Below, piece by piece: positions 1,927 through 58,034 of a stretch of DNA of 64,000 bases; position 1 is the first letter of the stretch, and each line of letters opens with the position of its first letter. A program made the translations under genes and the position numbers. The stretch comes from Patescibacteria group bacterium. GTDB lineage: Bacteria > Patescibacteriota > Minisyncoccia > Phycocordibacterales > UBA918. The DNA lies in contig JAIETH010000002.1 of assembly GCA_019745315.1 (NCBI GenBank), positions 32,654 to 96,653 of the forward strand. Direction: 5' to 3'. The notes under the pieces were generated by a model that made no database searches, had not been told where the DNA came from, and worked only from the letters and a program-made list of their open reading frames with translations.

Positions 1927-3385
1927 ATTGGAATTAATCCACGACCAGCTTCCGCTAGCCGTGCCTTGTTACGACTTAGTCCCTGTCATCGAGTTTACCG
2001 TAAGCCTACACGAGGTAGGATTTCGGGCACTCCCGACTCCCTTGACTTGACGGGCGGTGAGTACAAGGCTCGGGAACGTATTCACCCCGGCGTTGCTGAT
2101 CCGGGATTACTAGCGATTCCGACTTCATGAGGGCGAGTTGCAGCCCTCAATCCGAACTGGGGGTACTTTTATAAGGATTTGCTCCACCTTACGGTATTGC
2201 GTCCTGTTGTGGTACCCATTGTATCACGAGTGCAGCCCAAGGCATCAAGGGACATGCGGACCTGGCGTCATCCTCACCTTCCTCCCCCGTGAGGGGGCAG
2301 TCTCGCCTGACAAATATAACAGGCAACGAGGGTTGCGTTCGTTTCCCCACTTAAGGGAACAACTCAAGCCACGAACTGACGACGGCCATGCATCACCTGC
2401 CATACACCCTCGAAGGCTTCCCCGGTTTCTCGGGGCGTGCAGTATGGTTTCTAGCCTTGGTAAGGTTCCTCGCTTAGCGACGAATTAAGCCTCATGATCC
2501 ACCGCTTGTGCGAGCCCCCGTCTATTCCTTTGAGTTTTAATCTTGCGATCGTACTTCCCAGGCGGCCCGCTTAACGCGTTAGCTTCGCCTCAGAGAGGGT
2601 CGATACTCCCTAAAGCTAGCGGGCAACGTTTAGGGCGTGGACTACCGGGGTATCTAATCCCGTTCGCTACCCACGCTTTCGTGTTTCAGTGTCAGGAATA
2701 CGCCAGTAAAGTGCCTTCGCATTTGGTGTTCCCCATGATATCAACGGATTTCACCCCTACACCATGAGTTCCCTTTACCTCTCGTATCCTCGAGCGTAGC
2801 CGTTTCCTCCGCGATTACCGGGTTAAGCCCGGTGATTTAACGGAAGACTAACTACGCCACCTACACACCCTTTACGCCCAGTAAATCCGGATAATGCTCG
2901 GGGCCTCTGTATTACCGCTCCTGCTGGCACAGAGTTAGGAGCCCCTTATTCATGAGGTAACGTCAAAATTTCCTCCCTCATAAAAGATGTTTACGTCCCT
3001 AAGGACTTCATCCATCACGCGGCGTCGCTCCGTCAGGCTTGCGCCCATTGCGGAAGATTCTCGACTGCAGCCTCCCGTAGGAGTATGGCCCGTGTCGCAG
3101 TGCCATCGGTGGGGGTCAGCCTCTCAGCTCCCCTACGCGTCGTAGCCTTGGTGAGCCATTACCTCACCAACTAGCTGATACGTCGCAGGCTGTTCCCAGA
3201 GCGATAAATCTTTACTCTCTCGAGACCATCACGTATTATCTCGCCTTTCGACGAGTTATTCGTGACTCTGGGGTACATACCTACGTGTTACTACCTCGTC
3301 TGCCATGGGTCTAAACCCATTCGACTTGCATGCCTCATCCACGCCGCCAGCATTCATCCTGAGCTAGGATCAAACTCTAATTTAA
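1927..3385 (-). rRNA. rrs: 16S ribosomal RNA, about 1.46 kb, with no large insertion.
   Basis: On the reverse complement there are universal landmarks: a 5' end ...AGAGTTTGATCCTAGCTCAG at about 3359-3378; a 515F-region variant TTACCGCTCCTGCTGGCAC; a 1492R-region GCCTTGTTACGACTT; and helix 45 with a GGAA tetraloop. The 3' tail reads GGAUUAAUUCCAAU rather than GGAUCACCUCCUUA. Confidence 0.9.
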
Positions 3386-5230: not shown

Positions 5231-6184
5231 TCAGCCATCAAAAACCAAAGCTCCCACAACGGCATCATTCTGACCGTGAACCAACAGTGATTCCCGCGCC
5301 ATCCACATGCCGCCCATCGGCTCAAACTCGCCGCTTCGCGTGTTCAAACCAAAGAACATCCGATAGATCATGTTGCGCGCCCCGAGAGCATCGCGTCGCG
5401 TCGGCATGATGAGCGGCTGCGCAAATGCCGGACCAGACCGACGAAGACGACTTTCAACCTCCCCTGGCGAAAGGCGCTCATTGCGCTTCACCCCATAGAG
5501 AGGAGCTTCTTTGGCTGCGTCATGGAGATACACGGCAACCATGTTGCATCGAGTGCCCCGCAAGGGACGCAGAACGCACGATCGATCGAGCGGCGGCGAC
5601 ACGTAGCCACCTGCCTGCTCACTCGGATCTGTCAGCCACTCGATGCGACGCCAGAGATTCATCCGCTCTCCGTAATGCTTATCACCCTCGTGCCGCACAG
5701 AGCTGATGGCTCGATGCTCGAGAGGGTGATAGTCACGATCTTCTGGGCGAGAGCGCACCAAGAGCGCGCCCGCATGACGAAATGCCTGCTCGAGAGAAAG
5801 ACCTTCTCCCAATGCCAGCGCATCGTCAGTGATCCTGTGAGGAGAGCTGACCCACCGAAATTCAGGCCACATACCCAGCATCTCGCTGAGCCTGCTTTCG
5901 AATTGTGGCACGAGGACTTTCGCCACCCCAATACCACACGGACGCTCCTCCACCTCAAAGAGATGGAGCTTTTCCTCAGGATCAACCACGCAGTCGAGCC
6001 GAACAATGAGCGAAGGACTGCCGTAGTCTCGACCCACGAGGGTATCACCCTTCGGATAGATACCGCGCCACTCCTTGAGCAGCGCCAGAGCTTGGTCGAT
6101 CGCCCCTGTCGAAAAAACCTCGACATGGTCGGACACGTTGAGCGTCCAACCATTTGGCAAAACTTTCTGTTCGAACGAAGCCAT
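5231..6184 (-). CDS. Hypothetical protein of 317 aa, encoded in a GC-rich island of about 58% GC.
   Basis: Long ORF with a strong AGGAGG Shine-Dalgarno motif 8 nt upstream of its ATG. Its base composition is strikingly different from neighbouring genes. No confident family assignment was possible. Confidence 0.55.
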   Translation of the reverse strand: MASFEQKVLPNGWTLNVSDHVEVFSTGAIDQALALLKEWRGIYPKGDTLVGRDYGSPSLIVRLDCVVDPEEKLHLFEVEERPCGIGVAKVLVPQFESRLSEMLGMWPEFRWVSSPHRITDDALALGEGLSLEQAFRHAGALLVRSRPEDRDYHPLEHRAISSVRHEGDKHYGERMNLWRRIEWLTDPSEQAGGYVSPPLDRSCVLRPLRGTRCNMVAVYLHDAAKEAPLYGVKRNERLSPGEVESRLRRSGPAFAQPLIMPTRRDALGARNMIYRMFFGLNTRSGEFEPMGGMWMARESLLVHGQNDAVVGALVFDG

Positions 6185-6734
6185 TGGCTTTTGCCTCCTA
6201 CATGTGTGACGAACTCAGGAATGTCTCCTAAAAACAAAACGACCCCATGCGGGGCCTTGCTTGTCTCTAGATTCCTGTCGGAACTACGCACTCGCAAGAC
6301 CCCTCTGTTTCCAGAGAAGAATAGCGAGGAGGACGAATCCAATGCGATGTTCCATATTTCTACCTTATCAAACCAAAAGTATGTGTCAAGAAAAATCTTT
6401 ACGTTCCACTGCGCACAAAAAAAAAGACGCATGAGCGTCTCAGGAAAGAACGGATGGCGACGAGTAGGATACACGGAATCGGTGCCAGCCTATCCGCATA
6501 AATAGGAGAGGTGAGCCCCGCAACTTCCACGAAGAGGGCTTTTCTTCCTATGAGGCATAGCCTCATCCGCAGACTATTCAGCACGGCGTGCTATCCGCAC
6601 AGAAGTCATATTTGCGCTTTTCACCAAACCTGGCCGGGAGTGCCCAGCATGCGCAAACCTCGCCGCCACCTCAAATATCATACACGCCCCATACAGATAC
6701 GCAAGAAACGACTCTCTGTGCTACACTATTCCGG

Positions 6735-17839: not shown

Positions 17840-17948
17840 ATCTGGCGGCTACCTACTCTCCCTCTTGCGAAGTACCATCGGCGCTAGAAGGCTTAACTTC
17901 CGTGTTCGGAATGAGAACGGGTGTGACCCTTCCGCCAAACCACCAGAT
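17840..17948 (-). rRNA. rrf: 5S ribosomal RNA, 109 nt.
   Basis: The reverse complement AUCUGGUGGUUUGGCGGAAGGGUCACACCCGUUCUCAUUCCGAACACGGAAGUUAAGCCUUCUAGCGCCGAUGGUACUUCGCAAGAGGGAGAGUAGGUAGCCGCCAGAU aligns to the 5S consensus, including the CCGAAC and GUAC loop E regions and helix I. Confidence 0.85.
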
Positions 17949-18034: not shown

Positions 18035-18293
18035 TTAAATATTTAATCTGTTGGAATTTAATATCAAGTGTAGTATTTTTGCAACTCAAAATCAAAACCT
18101 AAGCAACTCTATGAATGCATAGTATTCCTTGTCTTGAATCCTGAAATCGAAATTTGCATGACGATGTTCAGCATTCCTTACAGGAAATACATTCTATTAG
18201 TACACCTCGGCTCCGCATATTTCTATGCTTCCACCTGGTGCCTATCAACCTGATAATCTCTCAGGGAATTTAATGATTCCTCATCTTAGAACT

Positions 18294-18326
<33 letters not shown>

Positions 18327-18452
18327 ATTCCGAACGTAGCTACAGGGCAATGCCGCTGGCGCGACAGCCCTCAGACCAGAGGTTCGTTCATCCCGGTCCT
18401 CTCGTACTAGGGACAAATTTCCTCAAGAATCGACGCCTGCAGTAGATAGGAG

Positions 18453-18486
<34 letters not shown>

Positions 18487-18561
18487 GCGTAACTTTTTAA
18501 TTGGCGAACAGCCAAACCCTTGGGACCTGCTCCAGCCCCAGGATAAGTTGAGCCGACATCG

Positions 18562-18927
18562 CTGTCATTTTTCCCACATTACTGTGAGGATCGGACTATA
18601 TCTTCATCCATACGTAATTTCGCATGGAGATCGGCGTGTAGTCTCTACGGGATCATGTACCAATATGCTTTCGGAATGAAATTAATCTGAAATTGATACT
18701 GACTTCCCACGGTATTGTCCACCTTCTCATTCTCTCTTACGAGAGCGGCTGATGTGGAGTTCACCGTTATAGCCAATTTGTTTTTGTACGGCATTACTGC
18801 CATAGGCACCCCGATGTATTTCGTTTGTTCTATATGGACTTTCGTCCATACAATCTTCGCTCACTCGGTCATGCAAAAGTAAACTTTTGCGCGACGCTCA
18901 TTCGCTTGATTGTAACTACATAAGTTA
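18562..18927 (-). ncRNA. Group I intron of 366 nt in 23S domain V, inserted after the U equivalent to E. coli U2500. It carries no ORF.
   Basis: Exon continuity GGCACCU|...|CGAUGUCGG. The 5' exon ends in U and the intron ends in G. The core sequences GUAGAGACUACACGCC and AAGAUAUAGUCCGAUCC resemble group I P7/J8-7. Confidence 0.65.
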
Positions 18928-19495
18928 AGGTGCCGAACCGTGCCGTCGCTATGGACGCTTGGGCACGACTAGCCTGTTATCCCCAGGGTAACTTTTATCG
19001 GGTAATCTCCGGCCGCATCTAACGCGTACCATCGGTTCACTATGCTCCGCTTTCGCGTCTGCTTGGCATCTACGCCTTACAGTCAAGCTGGCTTATGCCA
19101 TTACACTATCGGCACGGTTTCCATTCGCGCCTAGCCAACCTTGAGACCCCTCCGTTACTTTTTAGGAGGGTAGCGCCCCACTAAAACTGCCTACCACGCA
19201 CTGTCTCAGCATGATTTTTTCATGCTGGTTAGAAACTGCCCGAGTAAAGAATGGTATTTCACTGACGAGTCCACACTTCCCAAAAGAAATGCTTCAACCT
19301 CTCCCATCTATTCTACGCATCACAAGAACAGCCTCAATACGAAGCTACAGTAAAGCTCCTGGGGTCTTTTCGTCTAACTGCAGGTACCCGGCATCTTCAC
19401 CGGGATTGTATTTTCACCGAGCAAGTCCTTGAGACAGTTCCCCAGTCATTACGCCATTCGTGCACGTCGGAACTTACCCGACAAGGAATTGCGCT

Positions 19496-19722
19496 CTTCT
19501 ATTCCTCAAAGAAGGACTCTGTCTTCGTCCGTCCGCATAGGCGACTAAGGACGCGTGACATCTGGTCTCTTTGTGGTCACGTTTTGACTAAGCGTACATC
19601 TCTGTACGCAAGGTAGCTTTTTGAATGATCATCTACGTATCTCTCATAGATGAATTTGCGTCCATTTACCAATCCATAATCGTTCCAGTCATTCGGTTCA
19701 CTTCATTACTGAAATGAACCGA
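19496..19722 (-). ncRNA. Insertion of 227 nt in 23S domain IV at the L1931-equivalent site. It is a candidate small group I intron or intervening sequence.
   Basis: Helix 69 is intact (AGCGAUAACUAUAAUCGUU). The exon reads CUAAGGU|...|AGCGCAAUUCC. The insert begins with U-exon, ends with G, and contains CCUUAG, which is complementary to the 5' exon. Confidence 0.5.
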
Positions 19723-22106
19723 ACCTTAGAACGATTATAGTTATCGCTGACATTGACCGGGGCTTACATAGCCCAGCAGTACAGATTGCTCCATACCACC
19801 TTCCATGTTTAACCTTCCGGCATTGGTCAGGCGTCACCCCCTATACATCCACTTACGTGTTCGCAGGGAGCTGTGTTTTTGGTAAACAGTTGCCAGGGAA
19901 TCTTTCGCTGCGGCCTCTCACCTTGCGGCGAGGAGGCAGGCCTTATCCCGAAGTTACGGCCGCTTTTTTGCCGAGTTCCTTAAGGACCTCTCACTCGTTC
20001 GCCTTGGTCTACTCGACCTGATCACCTGTGTCGGTTTGCGGTACGGAACCGTTTTGTGTAACGTAGAAGTTTTTCTTGGAAGCGTGCTCCCACAATTGAC
20101 GTGTCCGAAGACACATCTTCAGGTTCAACTCGGATGTGCATTAAAGCAGAAGTGCGGATTTACCTACACCTCACCCTCGAAGCACCAACGAAAATCCAGT
20201 AATTCGTTTGAAGTACAACCCTCCGTCCCTCCATAGAAACAAAACGGTGTTATGGAATATTAACCATATGTCCATCGCCTCCCCCGTTCGGGATCGGCTT
20301 AGGCCCGACTAACCCTTGGCTGATCACCATCGCCAAGGAAACCTTGATCTTTCGGCGGGAGGGGCTCTCACCCTCCTTGCGGTTACTTGTGCCGGCATTC
20401 TCACTTCCATACGCTCCAAGTCGGGTCTCCCCTCCTCTTCATCGCAGAATGGAACGCTCTCCTACCACTTACTCTGTACGAATACAGAGCAAATCCGCAG
20501 TTTCGGTACTATGCTTGAGCCCCGATCATCTTCGGCGCAGAAACTCTCGACGAGTGAGCTGTTACGCTATCTTTAAAGGATGGCTGCTTCTAAGCCAACC
20601 TCCTCGCTGTCAATGAATTTCCACCTCCTCAAGTTGCACTGAGCATAGATTTAGGGACCTTAACTGGCGATCTGGGCTGTTTCCCTTTTGACCAATGGAG
20701 CTTATCCCCCATAGTCTAACTGCCGTGTTTTTAATCCTTGGTATTCGGAGTTTGATAGGTCCCACGAGATTTCTCCCTGTTGGGACCTTCCAGTGCTCTA
20801 CCCCCAAGGGGAACACACGACGCCAACCCAAAAGCTGTTTCGGAGAGAACCAGCTATTACGGAATTCGATTAGCTTTTCACTCCTTACCACAAGTCATCC
20901 GATGGTTTTGTACGGCCAACCGGTTCGGGCCTCCCCTTATCTTTCGATAAGGTTCACCCTGCTCATGGCAAGCTCATCCCGCTTCGGGTCGCATTCTATC
21001 CCTTATAATTTCGCGCTATTAACACTCGCTTTCGCTCTGCCTCCGGGGGTCGTCCCCTTAGACGAAGGAATACAATGCACTCGCCGGCTCATTCTTCAAT
21101 AGGCACGCGGTCACCAGACTTACGTCCAGCTCCCACTCTTTGTAGGCATACGGTTTCAGATCTATTTCACTGTCCTCACCGGACTGTTTTTCACCTTTCC
21201 CTCACGGTACTCGTTCACTATCGGTCTCTTAAAATATTTAGCCTTAGGAGTTAGTGCTCCCAGATTCATTCGAGCTATTCATGTCTCGAACTACTCAGGA
21301 ACGACAACAAGAAAGTAGTATTGATTTCGTATACGGGACTATTACCCACTGGGGTCACGCTTTCCAGCGTGTTCTACTACCAATACTTTTTGTAACTTTC
21401 CTCAACTAAATGAAGTTGCCGCCCTACAACCCCGACTATGTAAACACAATCGGTTTGGGCTGATCCCGTTTCGCTCGCCGCTACTAAGGGAATCGCAAGT
21501 GTCTTCTTCCTGACTATAATGGCTCCGCCAGTTGGCAGAATTTAGCCAGAAAGAAAACACCTTGTATTGCTTTCTTTTCCTCCAGGTACTGAGATGTTTC
21601 ACTTCCCTGGGTATGCAAATGTCTTACGACAAATCTCTATCGTAGATAGAGGGGTTTCCCCATTCGGAGATCCTCGGTTATAACGATTGCTTGGCATCTT
21701 ACCGAGGCTTATCGCAGCCATGCCACGTCCTTCTTCGCTTTTAAGAGCCTAGGCATCCACCGTACGCCCTTCATTCCTGTAAGGAATGCTAGACACCGTT
21801 TAAGGCACTTTCCATTCCATTACATGAATACTAAACACCGCTGTTTAGATTTTGATTTTTGTTGTTGTTCGCATGACACACACTCTGACGAAAAGACCCT
21901 CTTTAAAGACATGTGTGCACCATGCGTCACGTGTATGCAACAAAACATACACGATTGCTCGATACTTCCTACATGATATTAAATTTTCAACGAGCGAGTG
22001 TCCCGTATAAGGACTAAAAAAACCGCTTTGAGCGGAGAGAGAAACCCACAGAGAGTCCAACTTCCGCTTACAGGTTTTTATAGTTACTCATAGACACGTA
22101 GCCGCC

Positions 22107-37851: not shown

Positions 37852-38091
37852 ATGAGTGGCTCAATCAGAGCAATGACAGGAACAATCGCTCAGGCTGCGA
37901 GCCCTGCAGCGATTGTCAAAGCGCGGGTGACTGGAAAGTGCCCGTCATGCGAAGCCCGCCTCACAGGGCGAGCACTATGGGATGCGGGCACCCTGGTGAA
38001 ATACGTCATCCCCGACCACTACGACGCACGCAACCCCGCCAAGCTGACCTGCACGGGTGCCGGCACCACCATTCCGCAGAAGGAGACCTGA
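37852..38091 (+). CDS. Hypothetical small CxxC protein of 79 aa, encoded in a GC-rich cassette.
   Basis: An AAGGAG Shine-Dalgarno motif 9 nt upstream of the ATG, a CPSC motif, and a downstream terminator hairpin at about 38088-38123. Local GC is well above the flanks. Confidence 0.4.
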   Translation: MSGSIRAMTGTIAQAASPAAIVKARVTGKCPSCEARLTGRALWDAGTLVKYVIPDHYDARNPAKLTCTGAGTTIPQKET

Positions 38092-45183: not shown

Positions 45184-48100
45184 TTATACCAAGGTCACTC
45201 GATATGTTCGTTGATCAAGAGTGAGGGCTTCTCCGTCAGAAGAATCAAAACGAATATCTGTAGCATTCACCGTACGTGCAATCATATCTCTATACTCTGC
45301 CACTATGCTCTGACCCTCTCCATCAGTGTCTACAACAAGAACAATACCGTCTTGTGGCGCGTACCCTGACTGCTTTCGTAATTCTTGAATATGGCGCATA
45401 AGATCTCGCACCTCCCCTTCACGCGCGAGTTCTGGTGTGATCTCTGAATCAAGGGCAACCTCGCTTAATAGGGACTGGTCTTCTACGATCTGTTTTACAT
45501 TCACCTCTTCCTTGATCAATATGAGAAGATCTTCTGTATTTAAATACTCAGCACTCTTGATGCGAAGTGTTTGAAGAGGCTGACGAACTTTTACTCCCAC
45601 CTCATTACGAGCCTCAAGCGCCAAAGATACAACATCTCGTACTTTTTGCATTGCGCGCAAATCTTCTTCTTTTGGAGAAATTGAAATTGAAGGCCATGAT
45701 GCAAGGTGCACACTTATAGGATCAGCTTCTTCGCGCACAACTTGGAATAGGTGCTCAGCAAAAAACGGCATCGCCGGAGCCATCACAAGTGATAGCGTTT
45801 TAAGAATATAACGAAGCGTTGCAAGTGTTGCTCGTTGATCTTCCTCTCCCCCATACTTCAATCGCTCACGTGAGCGTCGCAAATACCACACCGAGAGATC
45901 GTCAATAAAGCCAGTAATTGGTCGCGTTGCTCGATCAAGCTCATACTCTTCCATACCGAGAGTTACATCCGCGACCACCTCTGACATCCGCATCAATATC
46001 CACGTATCAAGTACATGTGTTGAACCAAGCGCTTCTCCTGCTGGCACATCAGACTCTTTATACAACTCATAGAATGAAAGCACATTAGCCAAACGACCAA
46101 TGTTTTTGCGCCCAAGCTCAGCAAGACTTTTTTCAGAAAAGTTAAGATCTTCACCTCGAATGATTGGAGACGAGAGTAGATAAAAACGAAGTGTGTCTGC
46201 GCCATAGACATCAACAACATCCATGGGATCAGGATAGTTTTTTAGCTTCTTTGACATCTTGCGCCCGTCTTCAGCTAACACCAATCCGTTCACAATAACG
46301 TTCTTATATGGCGATCTTCCAAAAAGAGCTGTTCCAAGTACGATAAGAGAATAAAACCACCCACGAGTTTGATCTACTCCTTCCGCAATAAAATCAGCAG
46401 GATACCCTATTTCTTTCTCTGGGTTAAAACGATCAGTATTTTCAAATGGATAATGCTGTTCTCCATATGGCATCGAGCCCGATTCAAACCAACAGTCAAA
46501 TACATCTGGTACGCGTACGAGTGTTTCTCCATCAGTATCTAGAAGTTTAATTTCATCAATATACGGGCGGTGATAATCAAGTTCGTAATTTCGATTATGC
46601 GGCAATGGTACAAACTGAAGCTCTCGCACCTCTGCATTTGTAAAATACTCGCCTGAGTTACGCATCAGTTCGGTCTTATCTATATCTGCACCGAGAGCCA
46701 CCGACTCAAGTCCAAAGAGAGGCCCTGCGTGACTAATGATAAGGATATTCTTGCCCTTAAACTTCGCATCAATATCATAGAGAAATTCACCCACCCTTTT
46801 CTGTACATCCCGACGATTTTCAAGATTCCCAATTTTTGTGAGATATCGTGATTTCCAATCAGGAAAAAGTGCACTGTGTTCTGCCCATGTCTTCCCTTCA
46901 AAATCAGGACCGATCTGCATTTCACCAATTCGATCGTCTTCAATCATCGCTGAATCAGGAAGGTTAAAATGTTTCTGCAAAATTTCTGCAGTTTGTTTTG
47001 TGCGCTCGTAACCAGAGTGGATGATGAGATCGATTTTTTTATCTTTGTACTCTCCCGCAACCTTCTCTACCTGCTCTATCCCTTTTTGTGTCAAAGGATT
47101 GTGAGCCTCCTTTTTGGTACTTACTACGTCAGCCGCATTGCTTTCAGCTTCGCCGTGACGCATGAGGAAATACTGATTACCAGACTTTGGCACATGTGAC
47201 GCAAGCTCCTCGAGTGAGCCAAATACTTTATAGGTATTTGCTTTTTTGTTTTTCCATACCGGAAGCGGTGCTCCCCAATACCGCTGACGAGAGACCGCCC
47301 AATCACGTGCGCCCTCAAGCCAATTTCCAAAACGAGCTGAACCAATATGTTCTGGCACCCATCCAACTTTCGAATTTTCTTCTACGAGCTTATCTTTAAA
47401 ATCGGTAACCCGCACAAACCATGAAGACGTTGCATAGTTAAGAAGTGGTGTCTCACAACGCCAACAGTGCGGATAGCTGTGCACAATGTTTTCTTTTCCA
47501 AAAAGGCGTCCGCGCTCTTTAAGCATCTTTAAGATCAAAACATCTGCATCGGTATGAAGAATGCTCTTCTCAGAATCATCTTTCGGCTTCACAGGGCGCC
47601 CAGAGAGATCAGTAATATGCGACATGAAGTTCCCTTCTGTATCTACATGATGTACTACTGGAATTTCTTCCTTTTGTGCAAGAACAAGATCTTCTTCTCC
47701 GTATGCAGGAGCCAAATGCACTGCGCCTGTTCCGCTTTCAAGTGTTACATAATCAGCATGATAAATTTTCCATGCATTTGTTTTATTCTCTATATCGCGA
47801 TCAGCATAATATTCAAATGGAGGTATGTATGATTTTCCAACTAACTCTGAACCCTTAAACTCTTCCACTATTGAATAGTCTTCAGTCCCGAGCTGAGAAA
47901 TTCGCTCTTTCGCAAGAATAACAAAATCTTTTTTCCCTTCTAGAGAAACTTCAACCTTTACATACTCGTGGTCATTATGAACGGCAGCTGCCATATTGCC
48001 TGGAAGCGTCCACGGTGTAGTTGTCCACACAAGAAGAGACGTATCAGTCACCTCGCGAGCCTCATCCAGAAGCGGAAGCTTCACAGTAACCGCAATATCT

Positions 48101-48735
48101 TTTATATCTTTATAGCCCTGGTTTACTTCAAAGTTTGAAAGTGTGGTGCCGCAACGGGGGCAGAAGTGCATGGACTTAAATCCTTCGTATACCAACCCTT
48201 TTTTATTAAGCTCAGAAAAAACCCACCACACACTTTCAGTGTATGACGCATCCATTGTCTTATAGTCATCGTCCATATCAGCCCAACGACCGAGGCGCGG
48301 AATGATACGCTTCCAATCATCCGCATACTCCATCACAGTATCAGCACATGCTTGATTGAATTTCTCTACCCCAAGCTCTTCAATATCTCTTTTAGTAGCA
48401 AGTCCGAGCTTTTTCTCGATGATGTTTTCAAGAGGGAGTCCGTGACAGTCCCATCCCCACTTACGAGTGACATGATATCCGCGCATCGTTCTATAGCGTG
48501 GAATGGTGTCCTTAATAGTTCCTGCAAGAATATGTCCGTGATGCGGAAGCCCAGTTGCAAACGGTGGCCCGTCATAAAAAACGTATTCACCAAGCGGAGA
48601 TTCTTTTTCTAATGACTTTTCAAAAATCTTTTCTGTATTCCAAAACGCAAGAACAGCTTCCTCACGCAAAGCGACATCACTCACCTTTTTTTCTGTTGTA
48701 GTATCTGGTGTTTTTTCCATAACAAATCCCCCCAC
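45184..48735 (-). CDS. ileS: Isoleucine--tRNA ligase (type 2) with an inserted histidine-phosphatase (PGAM-like) domain.
   Basis: Shows HIGH (PHHGHIL), the editing domain, WCISR-like RDWAVSRQRYWG, KMSKK and the C-terminal domains. About 195 extra residues with LMRHGEAESN and ILIISHAGPL motifs are inserted between PLPVW and YHRPYIDE. The likely true start is MEKTP at 48720. Confidence 0.85.
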   Translation of the reverse strand: MGGFVMEKTPDTTTEKKVSDVALREEAVLAFWNTEKIFEKSLEKESPLGEYVFYDGPPFATGLPHHGHILAGTIKDTIPRYRTMRGYHVTRKWGWDCHGLPLENIIEKKLGLATKRDIEELGVEKFNQACADTVMEYADDWKRIIPRLGRWADMDDDYKTMDASYTESVWWVFSELNKKGLVYEGFKSMHFCPRCGTTLSNFEVNQGYKDIKDIAVTVKLPLLDEAREVTDTSLLVWTTTPWTLPGNMAAAVHNDHEYVKVEVSLEGKKDFVILAKERISQLGTEDYSIVEEFKGSELVGKSYIPPFEYYADRDIENKTNAWKIYHADYVTLESGTGAVHLAPAYGEEDLVLAQKEEIPVVHHVDTEGNFMSHITDLSGRPVKPKDDSEKSILHTDADVLILKMLKERGRLFGKENIVHSYPHCWRCETPLLNYATSSWFVRVTDFKDKLVEENSKVGWVPEHIGSARFGNWLEGARDWAVSRQRYWGAPLPVWKNKKANTYKVFGSLEELASHVPKSGNQYFLMRHGEAESNAADVVSTKKEAHNPLTQKGIEQVEKVAGEYKDKKIDLIIHSGYERTKQTAEILQKHFNLPDSAMIEDDRIGEMQIGPDFEGKTWAEHSALFPDWKSRYLTKIGNLENRRDVQKRVGEFLYDIDAKFKGKNILIISHAGPLFGLESVALGADIDKTELMRNSGEYFTNAEVRELQFVPLPHNRNYELDYHRPYIDEIKLLDTDGETLVRVPDVFDCWFESGSMPYGEQHYPFENTDRFNPEKEIGYPADFIAEGVDQTRGWFYSLIVLGTALFGRSPYKNVIVNGLVLAEDGRKMSKKLKNYPDPMDVVDVYGADTLRFYLLSSPIIRGEDLNFSEKSLAELGRKNIGRLANVLSFYELYKESDVPAGEALGSTHVLDTWILMRMSEVVADVTLGMEEYELDRATRPITGFIDDLSVWYLRRSRERLKYGGEEDQRATLATLRYILKTLSLVMAPAMPFFAEHLFQVVREEADPISVHLASWPSISISPKEEDLRAMQKVRDVVSLALEARNEVGVKVRQPLQTLRIKSAEYLNTEDLLILIKEEVNVKQIVEDQSLLSEVALDSEITPELAREGEVRDLMRHIQELRKQSGYAPQDGIVLVVDTDGEGQSIVAEYRDMIARTVNATDIRFDSSDGEALTLDQRTYRVTLV

Positions 48736-48788
48736 CTCCCTAGGCTTTTCATAGTACCACTATCTCAGGAAGGCATCAAAAATGACGC

Positions 48789-49877
48789 TTATTTCACGAG
48801 GGTTATAAGCGGACGCTTTGTGGCTTCTGTCACAATGGTAAACGTCTCGCTCCCAAGTATCTGCCTCCGCTCAGTCTCTACAATACAGCGCCACAAACCA
48901 TCATGAACATTGGTTACATACGTATATCCTCTATATCCTCGCTCATTTCCTCCTGAAATAGTAAATGGGATTCTGCTTTGAGTGACCCACTCGCCACTCG
49001 TCTCATTAAAGTACTGCCAGTGATGAAATATTCTGAGTGAAAATGAGGTCGGCGCAAATACAGAGGTGAAGCAGTGAACCTCATCCCCCTTTGTGTATCG
49101 ATACGTTGTGTCAGCATCGCGCCAAAACTTATACCACGGAGCTTCCTCGTATGTAAGACGATAACTTCCGTCTTCAATTTTTTCAACCTGATGATAGATG
49201 TCTATATTTTTAAGTGAAAGCGGAATAGGCGGAATAATGTTTCCAAAATATAAAAAATTAAGAACAGCAAAAATGATGCCGAGGGAAAATATAATATTGC
49301 GGATATGAAGCTCAATAAAATTTGGGACAATAAGACGTAAGAGTCGTAGGTACAAAAATATAACAATGAGCGCCAATGTCCCGCTTCCTACAAAAACCCA
49401 TGGCCCCATTTTCTTAACAAGAACTGGTACAAACAAAATACAGTATGAAAAAATACCTAAGAAAAATATTGAAAGATTGAGGAGCAACCTCTCCGCTCGA
49501 TCACGCACCATCTCATTCCCTATCATCACACCAAGAACAAGTACGAGAAATGGCCACGAAACCGACCATGAGCCACTTTGGCTATAAAAAACAAGTGTTC
49601 CTGAAAGAAGTGAACCGAAACTAAATTGCACCAAAAGTGGCGCGTACCGCAATACAAAGGCTCGCATTTTTTCTCCTAACTTATCTGCAGTAGCGGCATA
49701 GAGAAGCGCTAAATTAGTGCCGGCATTCAATATATGCGCGAGCAAAATTCCCATTGCAAAAAACTGATCGACGCGTCCGAGCGTTAAAATATCGACAACA
49801 AAACCTCCAACAAAGGCAATGGTGAGCCACCACTGTTTTAGTTTTTGCGCTTTATCGTAATACGAACGAAATACCAT
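48789..49877 (-). CDS. Multi-pass membrane protein with a C-terminal soluble domain; function unknown.
   Basis: About 8 TM helices and a 130-aa C-terminal domain. Confidence 0.5.
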   Translation of the reverse strand: MVFRSYYDKAQKLKQWWLTIAFVGGFVVDILTLGRVDQFFAMGILLAHILNAGTNLALLYAATADKLGEKMRAFVLRYAPLLVQFSFGSLLSGTLVFYSQSGSWSVSWPFLVLVLGVMIGNEMVRDRAERLLLNLSIFFLGIFSYCILFVPVLVKKMGPWVFVGSGTLALIVIFLYLRLLRLIVPNFIELHIRNIIFSLGIIFAVLNFLYFGNIIPPIPLSLKNIDIYHQVEKIEDGSYRLTYEEAPWYKFWRDADTTYRYTKGDEVHCFTSVFAPTSFSLRIFHHWQYFNETSGEWVTQSRIPFTISGGNERGYRGYTYVTNVHDGLWRCIVETERRQILGSETFTIVTEATKRPLITLVK

Positions 49878-49940
49878 TTCTTCTATTGTATGACCAAAGC
49901 CTCGCGTTACAAACAGACTTTTAGAATAGAAAAAGAACGG

Positions 49941-49972
49941 CGTATGTGCCGTCCTTGGAATTGATGCCAGGG
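49941..49972 (-). terminator. Intrinsic terminator (ggacggc-acatac-gccgttc followed by a T-run) after the small basic protein gene.
   Basis: Read directly on the minus strand. Confidence 0.5.
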
Positions 49973-49973
49973 C

Positions 49974-50099
49974 CTACTTGTCGCGGCGCGGGCGACCGCC
50001 GCCGCACTTGCGACGCGTGCCGACGACGCGATGCGGGTTGGTCAGATTGCCGAACACCTGCCTGCCACGATTGCGGAACTTCTTGCCCTTGATGGTCAT
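49974..50099 (-). CDS. Small basic protein of 41 aa (MTIKGKKFRNRGRQVFGNLTNPHRVVGTRRKCGGGRPRRDK), possibly a ribosomal or nucleic-acid-binding protein.
   Basis: A GC-rich ORF that is not in the supplied track (under 60 aa). It is preceded by GGGAGG-N6-ATG and a TTGACA-N17-TATAAA promoter, and followed by a terminator. The overlapping plus-strand ORF 49978-50220 looks spurious. Confidence 0.45.
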   Translation of the reverse strand: MTIKGKKFRNRGRQVFGNLTNPHRVVGTRRKCGGGRPRRDK

Positions 50100-50144
50100 C
50101 AGTAGCCTCCCATACCCAACCCCGTCATGGAATTGGATCGTATT

Positions 50145-50173
50145 TTTATACTTCTATAAGCTCCAAGTGTCAA
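50145..50173 (-). promoter_or_regulatory. Near-consensus sigma70 promoter TTGACA-N17-TATAAA upstream of the small basic protein gene.
   Basis: Read directly on the minus strand. Confidence 0.45.
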
Positions 50174-50207
50174 TGGTACGTACGTGCGTATATCTCACCT
50201 ATATCAA

Positions 50208-50247
50208 AAACACGCAATGAGCACCTGGACTCATTGCGTGTTTTTAA
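50208..50247. terminator. Intrinsic terminator after glyA (aaaaacacgcaatgag-cacctgga-ctcattgcgtgttttt).
   Basis: Read directly from the sequence. Confidence 0.65.
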
Positions 50248-50259
50248 ATAATTACTTAG

Positions 50260-51558
50260 CTAGTTAATGAAAGAATCTGGAACTGGATGCGCAAGACAAA
50301 TTTCTTTGATCTCACTTTTTATCTCTGCTTTTTTATTCGCATCATCTTTATTTCGAAGTGTTTCTATCATCAATTCCGCAACACGTGTCGCTTCTTTTTC
50401 TTTCATATTACGCGTTGTCATCGCAGGAGTTCCAAAGCGAATTCCAGAGGGATCCATAGGACTGCGTGTATCGTCTGCTATTGAATTCATATTGAGCGAA
50501 AGCCCTACTTCGTCAAGCACTGCCTGAGACTCTTTCCCTCCTACACCAAGAGATCCATACACATCTGCAAGAATTAAATGATTTGAAGTTCCTCCACCAA
50601 TCATACGCACCCCCTCTCTGCGGAACACGTCTTCCATTGCTTTTGCGTTTTTAAGAATCTGTTGTGTGTATTTCTGGAATTGTGGGGTTGCTGCCTCCTT
50701 AAACGCAATCGCCTTACCTGCAATCAAGTGCATGTGAGGACCACCTTGGAGCCCTGGGAATACCGACTTATCAATCTTTTTGGCATACTCTTCATTTTCG
50801 CGCGTCAAAATCATACCTCCGCGTGGCCCCCGGAGCGTCTTGTGAGTGGTGGTGGTAATAACATCGAAGCCATCATCAAATGGGTTACGAGCAACCTTAC
50901 CCGCAATCAAGCCTGCAATGTGTGCCATGTCAGCCACTGTGATAGCTCCCACCTCTCGTGCAATTTCTACAAATTTTGCATACTCAAGCTCTCGACTATA
51001 GGCAGAGAAACCAACTAAAATCATTTTTGGCTTCTCACGAAGCGCTGTGGCGCGAAGCTCATCAAAATCAATCTCACCCGTTTCTATATTCTTCATCTTG
51101 TATCGCACAAAACGGAAAATTTTTGCAAGCGCTGTAACTGGATGTCCATGCGTTAAGTGTCCTCCGTGCGAAAGATCCATACCCAATATAGTGTCTCCTG
51201 GCTCAAGGAGCGCGAAGTACATAGCAACATTTGCCGGAGCCCCCGAAAGCGGCTGCACATTTGCATATTCACAATTAAAAAGAGTCTTGGCGCGCGCTAT
51301 CGCAATGCGCTCAACAGCATCGGTAAAATCCTGACCGCCATAGTAGCGCTTCCCTGGATATCCTTCTGAATACTTATTCGTGAACACCGAACCATTTGCT
51401 TCCCGCACCGCGCGAGACACATAGTTTTCACTCGGCACCAATTCAAGACCCTCCTCTTCTCGACGCTCTTCTCCAATAAGGGTATTGAAAACTTCAATAT
51501 CTTCTTTTTCTATCCACGGATAGAGCGACTCTTTTAATTCATGTTCAGACATACGCAT
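50260..51558 (-). CDS. glyA: Serine hydroxymethyltransferase.
   Basis: The PLP site TTTTHKTLRGPRGG and overall SHMT similarity. Confidence 0.9.
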   Translation of the reverse strand: MRMSEHELKESLYPWIEKEDIEVFNTLIGEERREEEGLELVPSENYVSRAVREANGSVFTNKYSEGYPGKRYYGGQDFTDAVERIAIARAKTLFNCEYANVQPLSGAPANVAMYFALLEPGDTILGMDLSHGGHLTHGHPVTALAKIFRFVRYKMKNIETGEIDFDELRATALREKPKMILVGFSAYSRELEYAKFVEIAREVGAITVADMAHIAGLIAGKVARNPFDDGFDVITTTTHKTLRGPRGGMILTRENEEYAKKIDKSVFPGLQGGPHMHLIAGKAIAFKEAATPQFQKYTQQILKNAKAMEDVFRREGVRMIGGGTSNHLILADVYGSLGVGGKESQAVLDEVGLSLNMNSIADDTRSPMDPSGIRFGTPAMTTRNMKEKEATRVAELMIETLRNKDDANKKAEIKSEIKEICLAHPVPDSFIN

Positions 51559-57397: not shown

Positions 57398-57476
57398 ACC
57401 TTAACAGGTTTTTTAAAAGGTTGACTTTTTTTGTTTTTTATTGCACTCTCAATCTTGGATTCAAAAGGAGGACCCG

Positions 57477-58019
57477 ATGCCCGCATGTGACGCCCCCACC
57501 CTGCTCACCCCCGAACAACTGTTCTGCCTCTGCGGATGCCGCAGCTATAAGCAGTACTACGAGATGCGGAAAGGCTTCGAGTCTGGAGCTTGTGCTTTCT
57601 GCCAGATCGACAAGGGGCTCAACCAAGTGCTTTTCGAGAACGATTTTTGGCTGATCTGGGAGGTTCCCTCGCAATTTCTGCGTAAGGAACTTGCCCTCCA
57701 TCTGATGATCGTCCCGAAGCAACACGTTCGGTTCCCTTGGGAACTTCCTGCAGAAGCTACGCGCGCGAAGTACGCGTGCTGGGAGTGGATCGAGGAACAC
57801 TACGCTGACCGGATCGAGGGCGGCATAATTGCTACCCGCATTGGAGACATGCGGCTCAATGCCGGCACGGTGCCGCACATGCACACCAACGTGTATGTGC
57901 CGAAGGGTACCGCTGAATTTCGGATTCCTGTTTTTAAGGATCCGAGTGACGCCGCGGAGAACGCTCTGCGTGCCGCAGAATTTTCGACACGATACGAAGC
58001 AGGTGAAGTGCCCGCCTAA
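57477..58019 (+). CDS. HIT-like paralog of the preceding gene, encoded in a GC-rich cassette of about 57% GC.
   Basis: Shares the CAFC, RIGDM and PHMHTNV pattern with the 56945-57397 product. It has a perfect AGGAGG Shine-Dalgarno motif 5 nt upstream of its ATG and its own downstream terminator. Confidence 0.55.
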   Translation: MPACDAPTLLTPEQLFCLCGCRSYKQYYEMRKGFESGACAFCQIDKGLNQVLFENDFWLIWEVPSQFLRKELALHLMIVPKQHVRFPWELPAEATRAKYACWEWIEEHYADRIEGGIIATRIGDMRLNAGTVPHMHTNVYVPKGTAEFRIPVFKDPSDAAENALRAAEFSTRYEAGEVPA

Positions 58020-58034
58020 CGCGAGGCACATCTG

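Follow-up and report, generated by a model that had tools for sequence, protein, structure and literature searches.

The glyA gene (50260–51558) and the gene for a DUF2914 membrane protein (48789–49877) are separated by a gap of 382 nt (49878–50259) in the window, the 64-kb stretch of a Parcubacteria (Patescibacteria) genome analysed here. On the minus strand this gap holds all the signals of a small cassette, a promoter, a 41-codon open reading frame (ORF) and an intrinsic terminator, in the correct order and with correct spacing, which supports the proposal of an earlier note on this DNA that an unannotated, self-contained small gene unit lies here. The upstream neighbour, glyA, ends with its own intrinsic terminator (50206–50245, minus strand), made up of a 16-nt perfect inverted repeat (I1, 100% complementary) and a T-run, and this forms the upstream limit of the cassette; the downstream limit is the promoter of the DUF2914 gene, TTGTAA-N16-TACAAT (49885–49912, minus strand). 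Because the glyA terminator precedes the cassette, the small ORF is not expected to be co-transcribed with glyA and, given the limits on both sides, the unit would be monocistronic.

The promoter proposed in the earlier note, TTGACA-N17-TATAAA, is present on the minus strand at 50173–50145, with the −35 hexamer TTGACA at 50168–50173 and, after a 17-nt spacer, the −10 hexamer TATAAA at 50145–50150, which agrees with TATAAT at 5/6 positions. This 11/12 match with a 17-nt spacer is the sole one on either strand, against a chance expectation of 0.51 for the whole 64-kb window. A second, stricter promoter scan, which demands T as the final −10 base, missed the site because TATAAA ends in A. From a predicted transcription start at ∼50138 on the same strand, the transcript would begin with a hairpin, AUCCAAUUCC-AUGAC-GGGGUUGGGU (50114–50138, minus strand), which occupies the first 25 nt of a ∼38-nt leader, has a 5-nt loop, is the same in all alleles and appears in both the minimum free energy and the centroid structures from RNA folding. 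A Shine-Dalgarno (SD)-like GGGAGG (50106–50111, minus strand) lies 6 nt ahead of the ATG at 50099, from which the ORF extends to a TAG at 49976–49974 (49974–50099 including the stop, minus strand) and translates as MTIKGKKFRNRGRQVFGNLTNPHRVVGTRRKCGGGRPRRDK. The terminator (49926–49956 including the T-run, minus strand) starts 18 nt past the ORF stop with the hairpin AAGGACGGC-ACATAC-GCCGTTCTT (49956–49933), a 9-bp stem with 5 G-C pairs and a 6-nt loop, followed by the T-run; the hairpin and T-run described previously are thus also in place.

The cassette stands out as an island with a GC peak of 0.68 vs a window mean of 0.448. In simulated islands of like composition, an enclosed ATG-to-stop ORF of at least 41 codons occurs in ∼2% per strand. 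The GC-rich part is flanked by an imperfect direct repeat, CAATTCCA-T-GACGG at 50135–50122 and CAATTCCA-AG-GACGG at 49963–49949 (both minus strand), for which a rough estimate of the chance expectation is ∼0.02; the second copy has AATTCCAA in common with the 16S 3′ tail, probably by coincidence. This weak repeat could be microhomology left from insertion and is the sole candidate mobile-element signature at the cassette. A mobile element was rejected, as neither terminal inverted repeats around the cassette nor a second copy of it within the window was found. Another GC-rich intergenic island, with a peak of 0.67, is located at 37852–38091 on the plus strand, with a terminator hairpin extending to ∼38120. 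It contains a 79-aa ORF that starts at an ATG preceded by AAGGAG and has a 10-bp hairpin with a T-run immediately behind it; its codon periodicity is weak (GC1/2/3 0.56/0.61/0.66) and its folding z-score is −1.9. No Rfam match and no significant Pfam, PHROGs or PADLOC match was found for it, and it is absent from the protein collection. This island may be another orphan gene or an RNA of a new type.

Coding signal and predicted product of the minus-strand frame

The ORF has an overall GC content of 66% in a 45% GC genome and GC1/2/3 of 0.59/0.54/0.85, with GC1 higher than GC2 as in real genes. G or C is found at 35/41 third positions vs 46/82 at positions 1 and 2 (Fisher p = 0.0012, permutation p = 0.0027), and the GC3 of 0.85 exceeds that of every 41-codon window of the host genes (13,883 sliding windows in 48 genes; mean 0.39, SD 0.10, maximum 0.83). 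Host genes range from 0.29 to 0.43, with glyA, DUF2914 and ileS at 0.36–0.39. Codon choice in the ORF, AAG over AAA (5:0), CGC over CGT (6:2) and GGC over GGT (6:1), is opposite to that of the host, which prefers AAA, CGT and GGA. A pattern in which GC is highest at position 3 and lowest at position 2 marks genes from GC-rich genomes. We conclude that the minus-strand frame of the segment codes for protein or did so until recently, and its foreign period-3 composition points to a history of coding in an organism of high GC. The promoter, the start of the leader and the terminator, in contrast, are AT-rich and host-like, and a simple one-piece transfer does not account for this difference between the signals and the ORF that they surround. 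Most gene callers leave the ORF uncalled, and it was called by one pipeline among several. Raised GC3 is also seen elsewhere in the window, in the ORFs at 5231–6184 (minus strand, 0.61) and 57441–58019 (plus strand, 0.65), vs ∼0.38 for the host; the first has no Pfam match, and both may likewise be accessory genes of foreign composition. The opposite-strand ORFs of the crude gene list at these places, 5522–6505 (plus strand) and 57438–58031 (minus strand), are apparently spurious.

A structured RNA gene such as SRP, 6S, tmRNA or a riboswitch was rejected. The Rfam 15 covariance models give no match at E ≤ 1 on either strand of 49000–51000, the whole-window Rfam scan gives no gathering-level match at the cassette, and ARAGORN finds neither a tRNA nor a tmRNA there. 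Folding is also no better than that of dinucleotide shuffles, with z-scores of −1.23 for the minus strand and 0.01 for the plus strand.

Plus-strand frames do exist across the island, as the ORF list has an 80-aa ORF at 49978–50220 and a 48-aa ORF at 49946–50092, and a codon-aligned antisense frame rich in Ala and Leu (...LLVAARATAAALATRADDAMRVGQIAEHLPATIAELLALDGHQ*) runs opposite the minus-strand ORF. The earlier note had dismissed the plus-strand ORF as spurious, and this judgement agrees with our observations: a scan of the plus strand from 49500 to 50600 gave no promoter-like site, and the 80-aa ORF, whose TTG start lies within a hairpin, extends beyond the GC island over the AT-rich DNA that holds the promoter and terminator of the minus-strand unit. 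The Ala-rich frame resembles a protein at first sight, but its GC1/2/3 (0.82/0.53/0.59) peaks at position 1, which is a non-coding pattern, and the frame is the mirror image of the CGC, GGC and AAG codons of the minus-strand ORF. Neither this frame nor the 80-aa ORF has a Pfam match or an annotation, their exact sequences are absent from a collection of 15 billion proteins, and a word-indexed search found no homolog of the Ala-rich frame. The plus-strand frames thus lack relatives just as the minus-strand frame does, so that conservation of the plus-strand ORF in its place is not observed. Both a plus-strand gene and an Ala-rich protein relic were rejected for want of a Pfam match or homolog and because of the wrong codon-position GC pattern.

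The predicted product contains 9 Arg, 5 Lys, 7 Gly and 1 Asp, with a net charge of +13; 15/41 residues are charged and there is no hydrophobic run. The descriptions in the earlier note of a highly basic 41-aa minus-strand ORF (50099–49974) and of a GC-rich, Arg/Gly/Lys-rich composition are therefore accurate. AlphaFold gives no confident fold (pLDDT 56.6, pTM 0.13). The product would be an intrinsically disordered peptide that, to judge from its composition alone, would most likely bind RNA or DNA electrostatically. A type I toxin or small membrane peptide is contradicted by the lack of a hydrophobic transmembrane stretch and by the negative PADLOC search.

Searches for known families were negative. 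The best Pfam match of the peptide is Ribosomal_L29 (E = 0.22), with 12 bits vs a 24.5-bit cut-off; NCBIfam and the PDB sequences, ribosome chains included, give no match at E ≤ 10, and PHROGs and PADLOC give none. Membership of a known protein family, ribosomal or other, was rejected on these grounds. A word-indexed search of 5.8 billion clustered proteins returned one relative, a JGI-called protein of 41 aa and 90% identity (P0001), and an exhaustive phmmer search of 1.84 billion representatives again recovered it as the sole true relative. Two further phmmer matches (P0002, P0003) are not homologs; they are long tandem-repeat proteins whose scores are summed from many weak repeat matches. 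A scan of GTDB genomes with two 8-residue patterns gave a single match, in a Caldilinea MAG (L002), which we attribute to chance, as it lies antisense inside a 485-aa substrate-binding-protein gene and the matched frame holds no ORF. A donor was sought in phages, plasmids, viral collections and IMG/VR by tblastn, blastn and scanning, with no match, and a phage, plasmid or viral origin was rejected accordingly.

Translation in this host would have to proceed by another route than SD pairing. The 3′ end of its 16S rRNA (window 1927–1945, minus strand) reads GGAUUAAUUCCAAU where the bacterial consensus is GGAUCACCUCCUUU, and the canonical CCUCC anti-SD is absent; 29/48 long ORFs have no SD-like 4-mer upstream. 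A subgroup of Parcubacteria without the anti-SD motif has been described, in which SD helices were inferred not to form (PMC9297842). The GGGAGG-N6-ATG arrangement reported in the earlier note is there, as described, but its designation as a functional SD is not justified: because the 16S lacks CCUCC, the motif is no evidence of translation here and is probably not working as an SD in this host. In view of the codon usage, a carry-over from an SD-using donor is the better interpretation of this motif. Since the host has no anti-SD, translation, if any, would be SD-independent, which is feasible as the folding energy of the start region (−30 to +30; −8.8 kcal/mol) is average for host genes (mean −8.4, SD 5.3). 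The rRNA genes themselves are arranged in the manner typical of CPR: 16S (1927–3385) is unlinked from 23S-5S, which lie ∼15 kb away with protein genes between (5S 17840–17947, 23S 18175–21783), and the 23S gene carries a group I intron (18572–18823), also typical of CPR.

Distribution of the cassette and variation at the glyA/DUF2914 junction

The DUF2914 protein of the window is identical to NCBI MBX9906685.1, the relatives of which are labelled Kaiserbacteria or Parcubacteria; its next closest homologs are 72% identical. A database entry that appeared to offer a further allele (P0124) was discarded as it proved to be the window's own DUF2914 protein. The contig that encodes the 90% identical peptide (L001) has the same order of SHMT, ORF, DUF2914 and IleRS and is 96.8% identical in DNA overall. 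Three other contigs (L010, L011 and L012) carry an ORF identical to the window's allele, and their sole difference is a T-to-C change at 49936, which turns a G·U pair of the terminator stem into G-C. This is the one informative change outside the ORF, and it leaves the terminator stem paired; the alleles are too alike to yield a covariation signal. The cassette and its ORF are intact in all carrying contigs, from at least five independent assemblies and in two alleles, and the cassette is therefore not an assembly artefact.

Seven loci (L003–L009) whose DUF2914 protein is 46–72% identical were used for comparison, and blastn and tblastn of the ORF and the island found no trace of either in them. 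The junction is empty in L003 (2835–2959) and L009 (2486–2500), where 125 and 15 nt, respectively, separate the SHMT stop from the DUF2914 start. It holds a conserved 126-aa ORF in L007 (536–1824) and L008 (1347–1883), with a 202-aa ORF on the opposite strand in L007, and tmk and a 109-aa ORF in L005 (1355–2500); in L004 another gene lies upstream of DUF2914. The inserts of L005, L007 and L008 are unrelated to the cassette and have a host-like GC3 of 0.29–0.49. The glyA/DUF2914 gap is a variable site across related Parcubacteria and the cassette is confined to a single lineage, at species level, of an uncultured Parcubacterium. Its absence from syntenic relatives indicates, by parsimony, that it was gained in the lineage of the window, and this together with the GC3 of 0.85 vs ∼0.38 for the host makes the acquisition suggested earlier probable. 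Conservation of the reading frame in related genomes, proposed as a check in the earlier note, is not found, as the ORF is missing from genus- or family-level relatives with the same gene neighbourhood. A side feature of the locus is the IleRS gene (45184–48735, minus strand), whose 1183-aa product has an inserted histidine-phosphatase-like segment (...YFLMRHGEAESN...); Pfam His_Phos_1 falls between two tRNA-synt_1 matches in L005–L007, so that this fusion is conserved in the clade.

The relatives retain a terminator hairpin ∼40–55 nt upstream of the DUF2914 TACAAT box, from which it follows that the cassette terminator may pre-date the GC-rich insert. An equivalent TACAAT box precedes DUF2914 in relatives without the cassette, and a role of the cassette as an attenuator or leader peptide of DUF2914-ileS was rejected because DUF2914 has this separate, conserved promoter.

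The two alleles differ by nine substitutions within 18 nt (50055–50072, minus strand; codons 10–15), where NRGRQV is replaced by GRGKDI with the frame kept and no indel; 2/6 patch codons are synonymous and two changes are conservative. Outside the patch there is a single, synonymous difference in the ORF (CGC/CGT at 49986). By the Nei-Gojobori method pN/pS is 0.60 for the ORF frame, 0.48 for the antisense frame with the same third positions and 1.2–1.6 for the other four, values that rest on ten substitutions and so are without statistical power. They agree with the period-3 result, to which ten substitutions add no statistical weight. Divergence from L001 over 47338–50773 is mosaic, ∼1% for glyA and DUF2914 as against ∼5% for the 5′ part of ileS, and suggests recombination among strains. 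Tight substitution clusters are seen at 48706–48740, 48115–48121 and 50055–50072, and an 11-nt indel lies near 49925, past the cassette terminator. As ileS has similar clusters, the 18-nt patch probably belongs to a recombination mosaic rather than forming a hypervariable site of its own. A diversity-generating retroelement was rejected as its source, since the substitutions are not confined to adenines and the neighbourhood lacks a reverse transcriptase.

Origin and nature of the cassette

Our preferred reading, to which we assign a probability of about one half, is that the cassette is a recently acquired, independently transcribed, species-restricted orphan mini-gene that is expressed as a protein. 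On this reading, the ORF took shape as coding sequence of an organism with a high GC content and SD-based initiation; both its GC3 of 0.85 and the GGGAGG motif would be accounted for in this way. The acquired cassette would have been placed in the variable glyA/DUF2914 gap of the Parcubacteria genome. There, transcription from the near-consensus sigma-70-type promoter would give a monocistronic RNA of ∼210 nt, with the 5′ hairpin first, then the 41-codon ORF and its own intrinsic terminator last. Translation would be SD-independent in a host without anti-SD, and the disordered +13 peptide would most likely bind RNA or DNA electrostatically. A more particular proposal, which we regard as unlikely, is that of an expressed, very young gene in which a coding fragment with its donor SD came under a promoter and terminator of native style, the +13 peptide binding RNA or the ribosome in this lineage without SD/anti-SD pairing; the source of such a capture would be a high-GC, SD-using organism, possibly the host cell of the presumably episymbiotic Parcubacterium.

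It is possible, if rather unlikely, that the cassette is inert, a foreign high-GC coding fragment that was fixed neutrally, with a promoter and terminator that are fortuitous or remain from an earlier occupant. Junction inserts that differ between relatives would fit such a relic, as would the lack of relatives in any searched collection, the non-significant pN/pS of 0.6 and the hairpin that relatives keep in the corresponding place upstream of the DUF2914 promoter, by which the terminator could be older than the insert. However, chance would fill the island with an intact ATG-to-stop frame in only ∼2% of cases per strand, and this frame coincides with the only near-consensus promoter of the window, well placed, and with a terminator 18 nt past the stop. 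The cassette is also intact in every sampled contig, and small streamlined CPR genomes tend to shed useless DNA, which counts against a relic. About as unlikely, in our estimate, is a small non-coding RNA, where the ∼210-nt GC-rich RNA is itself the product and the ORF is incidental or a leftover. The significant period-3 GC in the ORF frame is a signature of coding and not of RNA structure, and a structural role is difficult to reconcile with the absence of an Rfam match at E ≤ 1, with folding no better than that of dinucleotide shuffles (z = −1.23) and with an allele patch in which 9 bases in 18 nt are changed without compensating changes elsewhere. What speaks for an RNA is the stand-alone promoter/terminator unit of typical small-RNA size, the GC-rich island in an AT-rich genome, as for many structured RNAs, an SD-like motif that carries no weight in a host without anti-SD and an ORF that most gene callers pass over.

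The earlier note had suggested a small ribosomal or nucleic-acid-binding protein. A lineage-specific ribosomal or ribosome-associated protein, comparable to bS22, bL37, bTHX or Sra, would match the peptide in size, extreme basicity, Arg/Gly/Lys richness and disorder, and the ribosomes of the host's group are reduced. Profile searches, however, give at best the sub-threshold L29 match, no family model is matched, the 90% allele is the only relative among the 1.84 billion representatives, none is found among PDB ribosome chains, and the ORF is absent from relatives that keep the neighbourhood and have a 46–72% identical DUF2914 protein. Its codon usage is foreign and unlike that of a host core gene. 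Ribosomal proteins belong to the conserved gene core and share the codon usage of their host, which makes a ribosomal role very unlikely. We give still less credence to a plus-strand gene, either the 80-aa ORF (49978–50220) or the Ala/Leu-rich antisense frame. Both frames are open in both alleles, the lowest pN/pS (0.48) belongs to the frame that shares the ORF third positions, and realignment of the patch by a 3-nt shift keeps an Ala-rich ‘LPAT’ motif through third-position changes. Against these points stand the missing promoter-like site in 49500–50600, the TTG start of the 80-aa ORF within a hairpin and its spill into the AT-rich minus-strand signals, the position-1 GC peak of the Ala-rich frame, which is not a coding pattern, and the lack of a Pfam match, homolog or annotation for either frame.

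The preferred reading of an acquired orphan mini-gene can be compared with several known systems. In a large survey, species-specific orphan genes (SSOGs) in prokaryotic pangenomes proved to be short, disordered, poor in optimal codons and matched to their host in GC (PMC11293555). The cassette ORF resembles them in that it has no similarity outside one species-level lineage, is short, predicted to be disordered, uses non-optimal codons and occupies a variable site, but differs in that its GC content of 66%, with a GC3 of 0.85, contrasts with 45% for the genome. This mismatch runs against the SSOG pattern, and an external origin is therefore favoured over a native one; no similarity of the cassette to viral sequences was found. 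Very small basic ribosomal or ribosome-associated proteins, such as bL34, bL36, bS22/Sra, bTHX and the mycobacterial bS22 and bL37, share with the peptide a length of 25–45 aa, richness in Arg and Lys, disorder when alone and a tendency to be missed by annotation. They are, however, conserved across a phylum or more and have family models, whereas the peptide belongs to one lineage, matches no model and has foreign codons.

The N proteins of phages lambda and P22 are arginine-rich-motif RNA-binding peptides, and the cassette peptide is likewise short, unstructured and Arg-rich; in principle, the stem-loop of its own transcript, with a 5-nt loop, might serve as a target. The resemblance is one of analogy only, as the peptide shows no sequence similarity to them, no phage context and no nut-like arrangement. 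SgrS/SgrT, RNAIII/hld and SR1/SR1P are dual-function small RNAs that also encode a small protein. The cassette, as a putative stand-alone transcript of ∼200 nt with its own promoter and terminator and a short ORF, would be similar in layout, but unlike in that the analysis revealed neither regulatory RNA activity nor target complementarity nor a conserved structure for it.

If the cassette is unexpressed, it is merely foreign DNA in a variable intergenic site; expressed or not, it leaves the picture of core ribosome composition unaffected. If it is a very young gene with a peptide that binds RNA or the ribosome, it would represent a datable gene capture in CPR and perhaps a translation or RNA factor peculiar to the lineage. 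Should the peptide be produced, it would be an unannotated small protein in poorly understood, uncultured CPR/Parcubacteria and a clean, datable gene gain, in which the foreign codons and the donor-style SD are still visible in a non-SD host. Such cases help to trace the origins of orphan genes and show that small genes are missed by gene callers.
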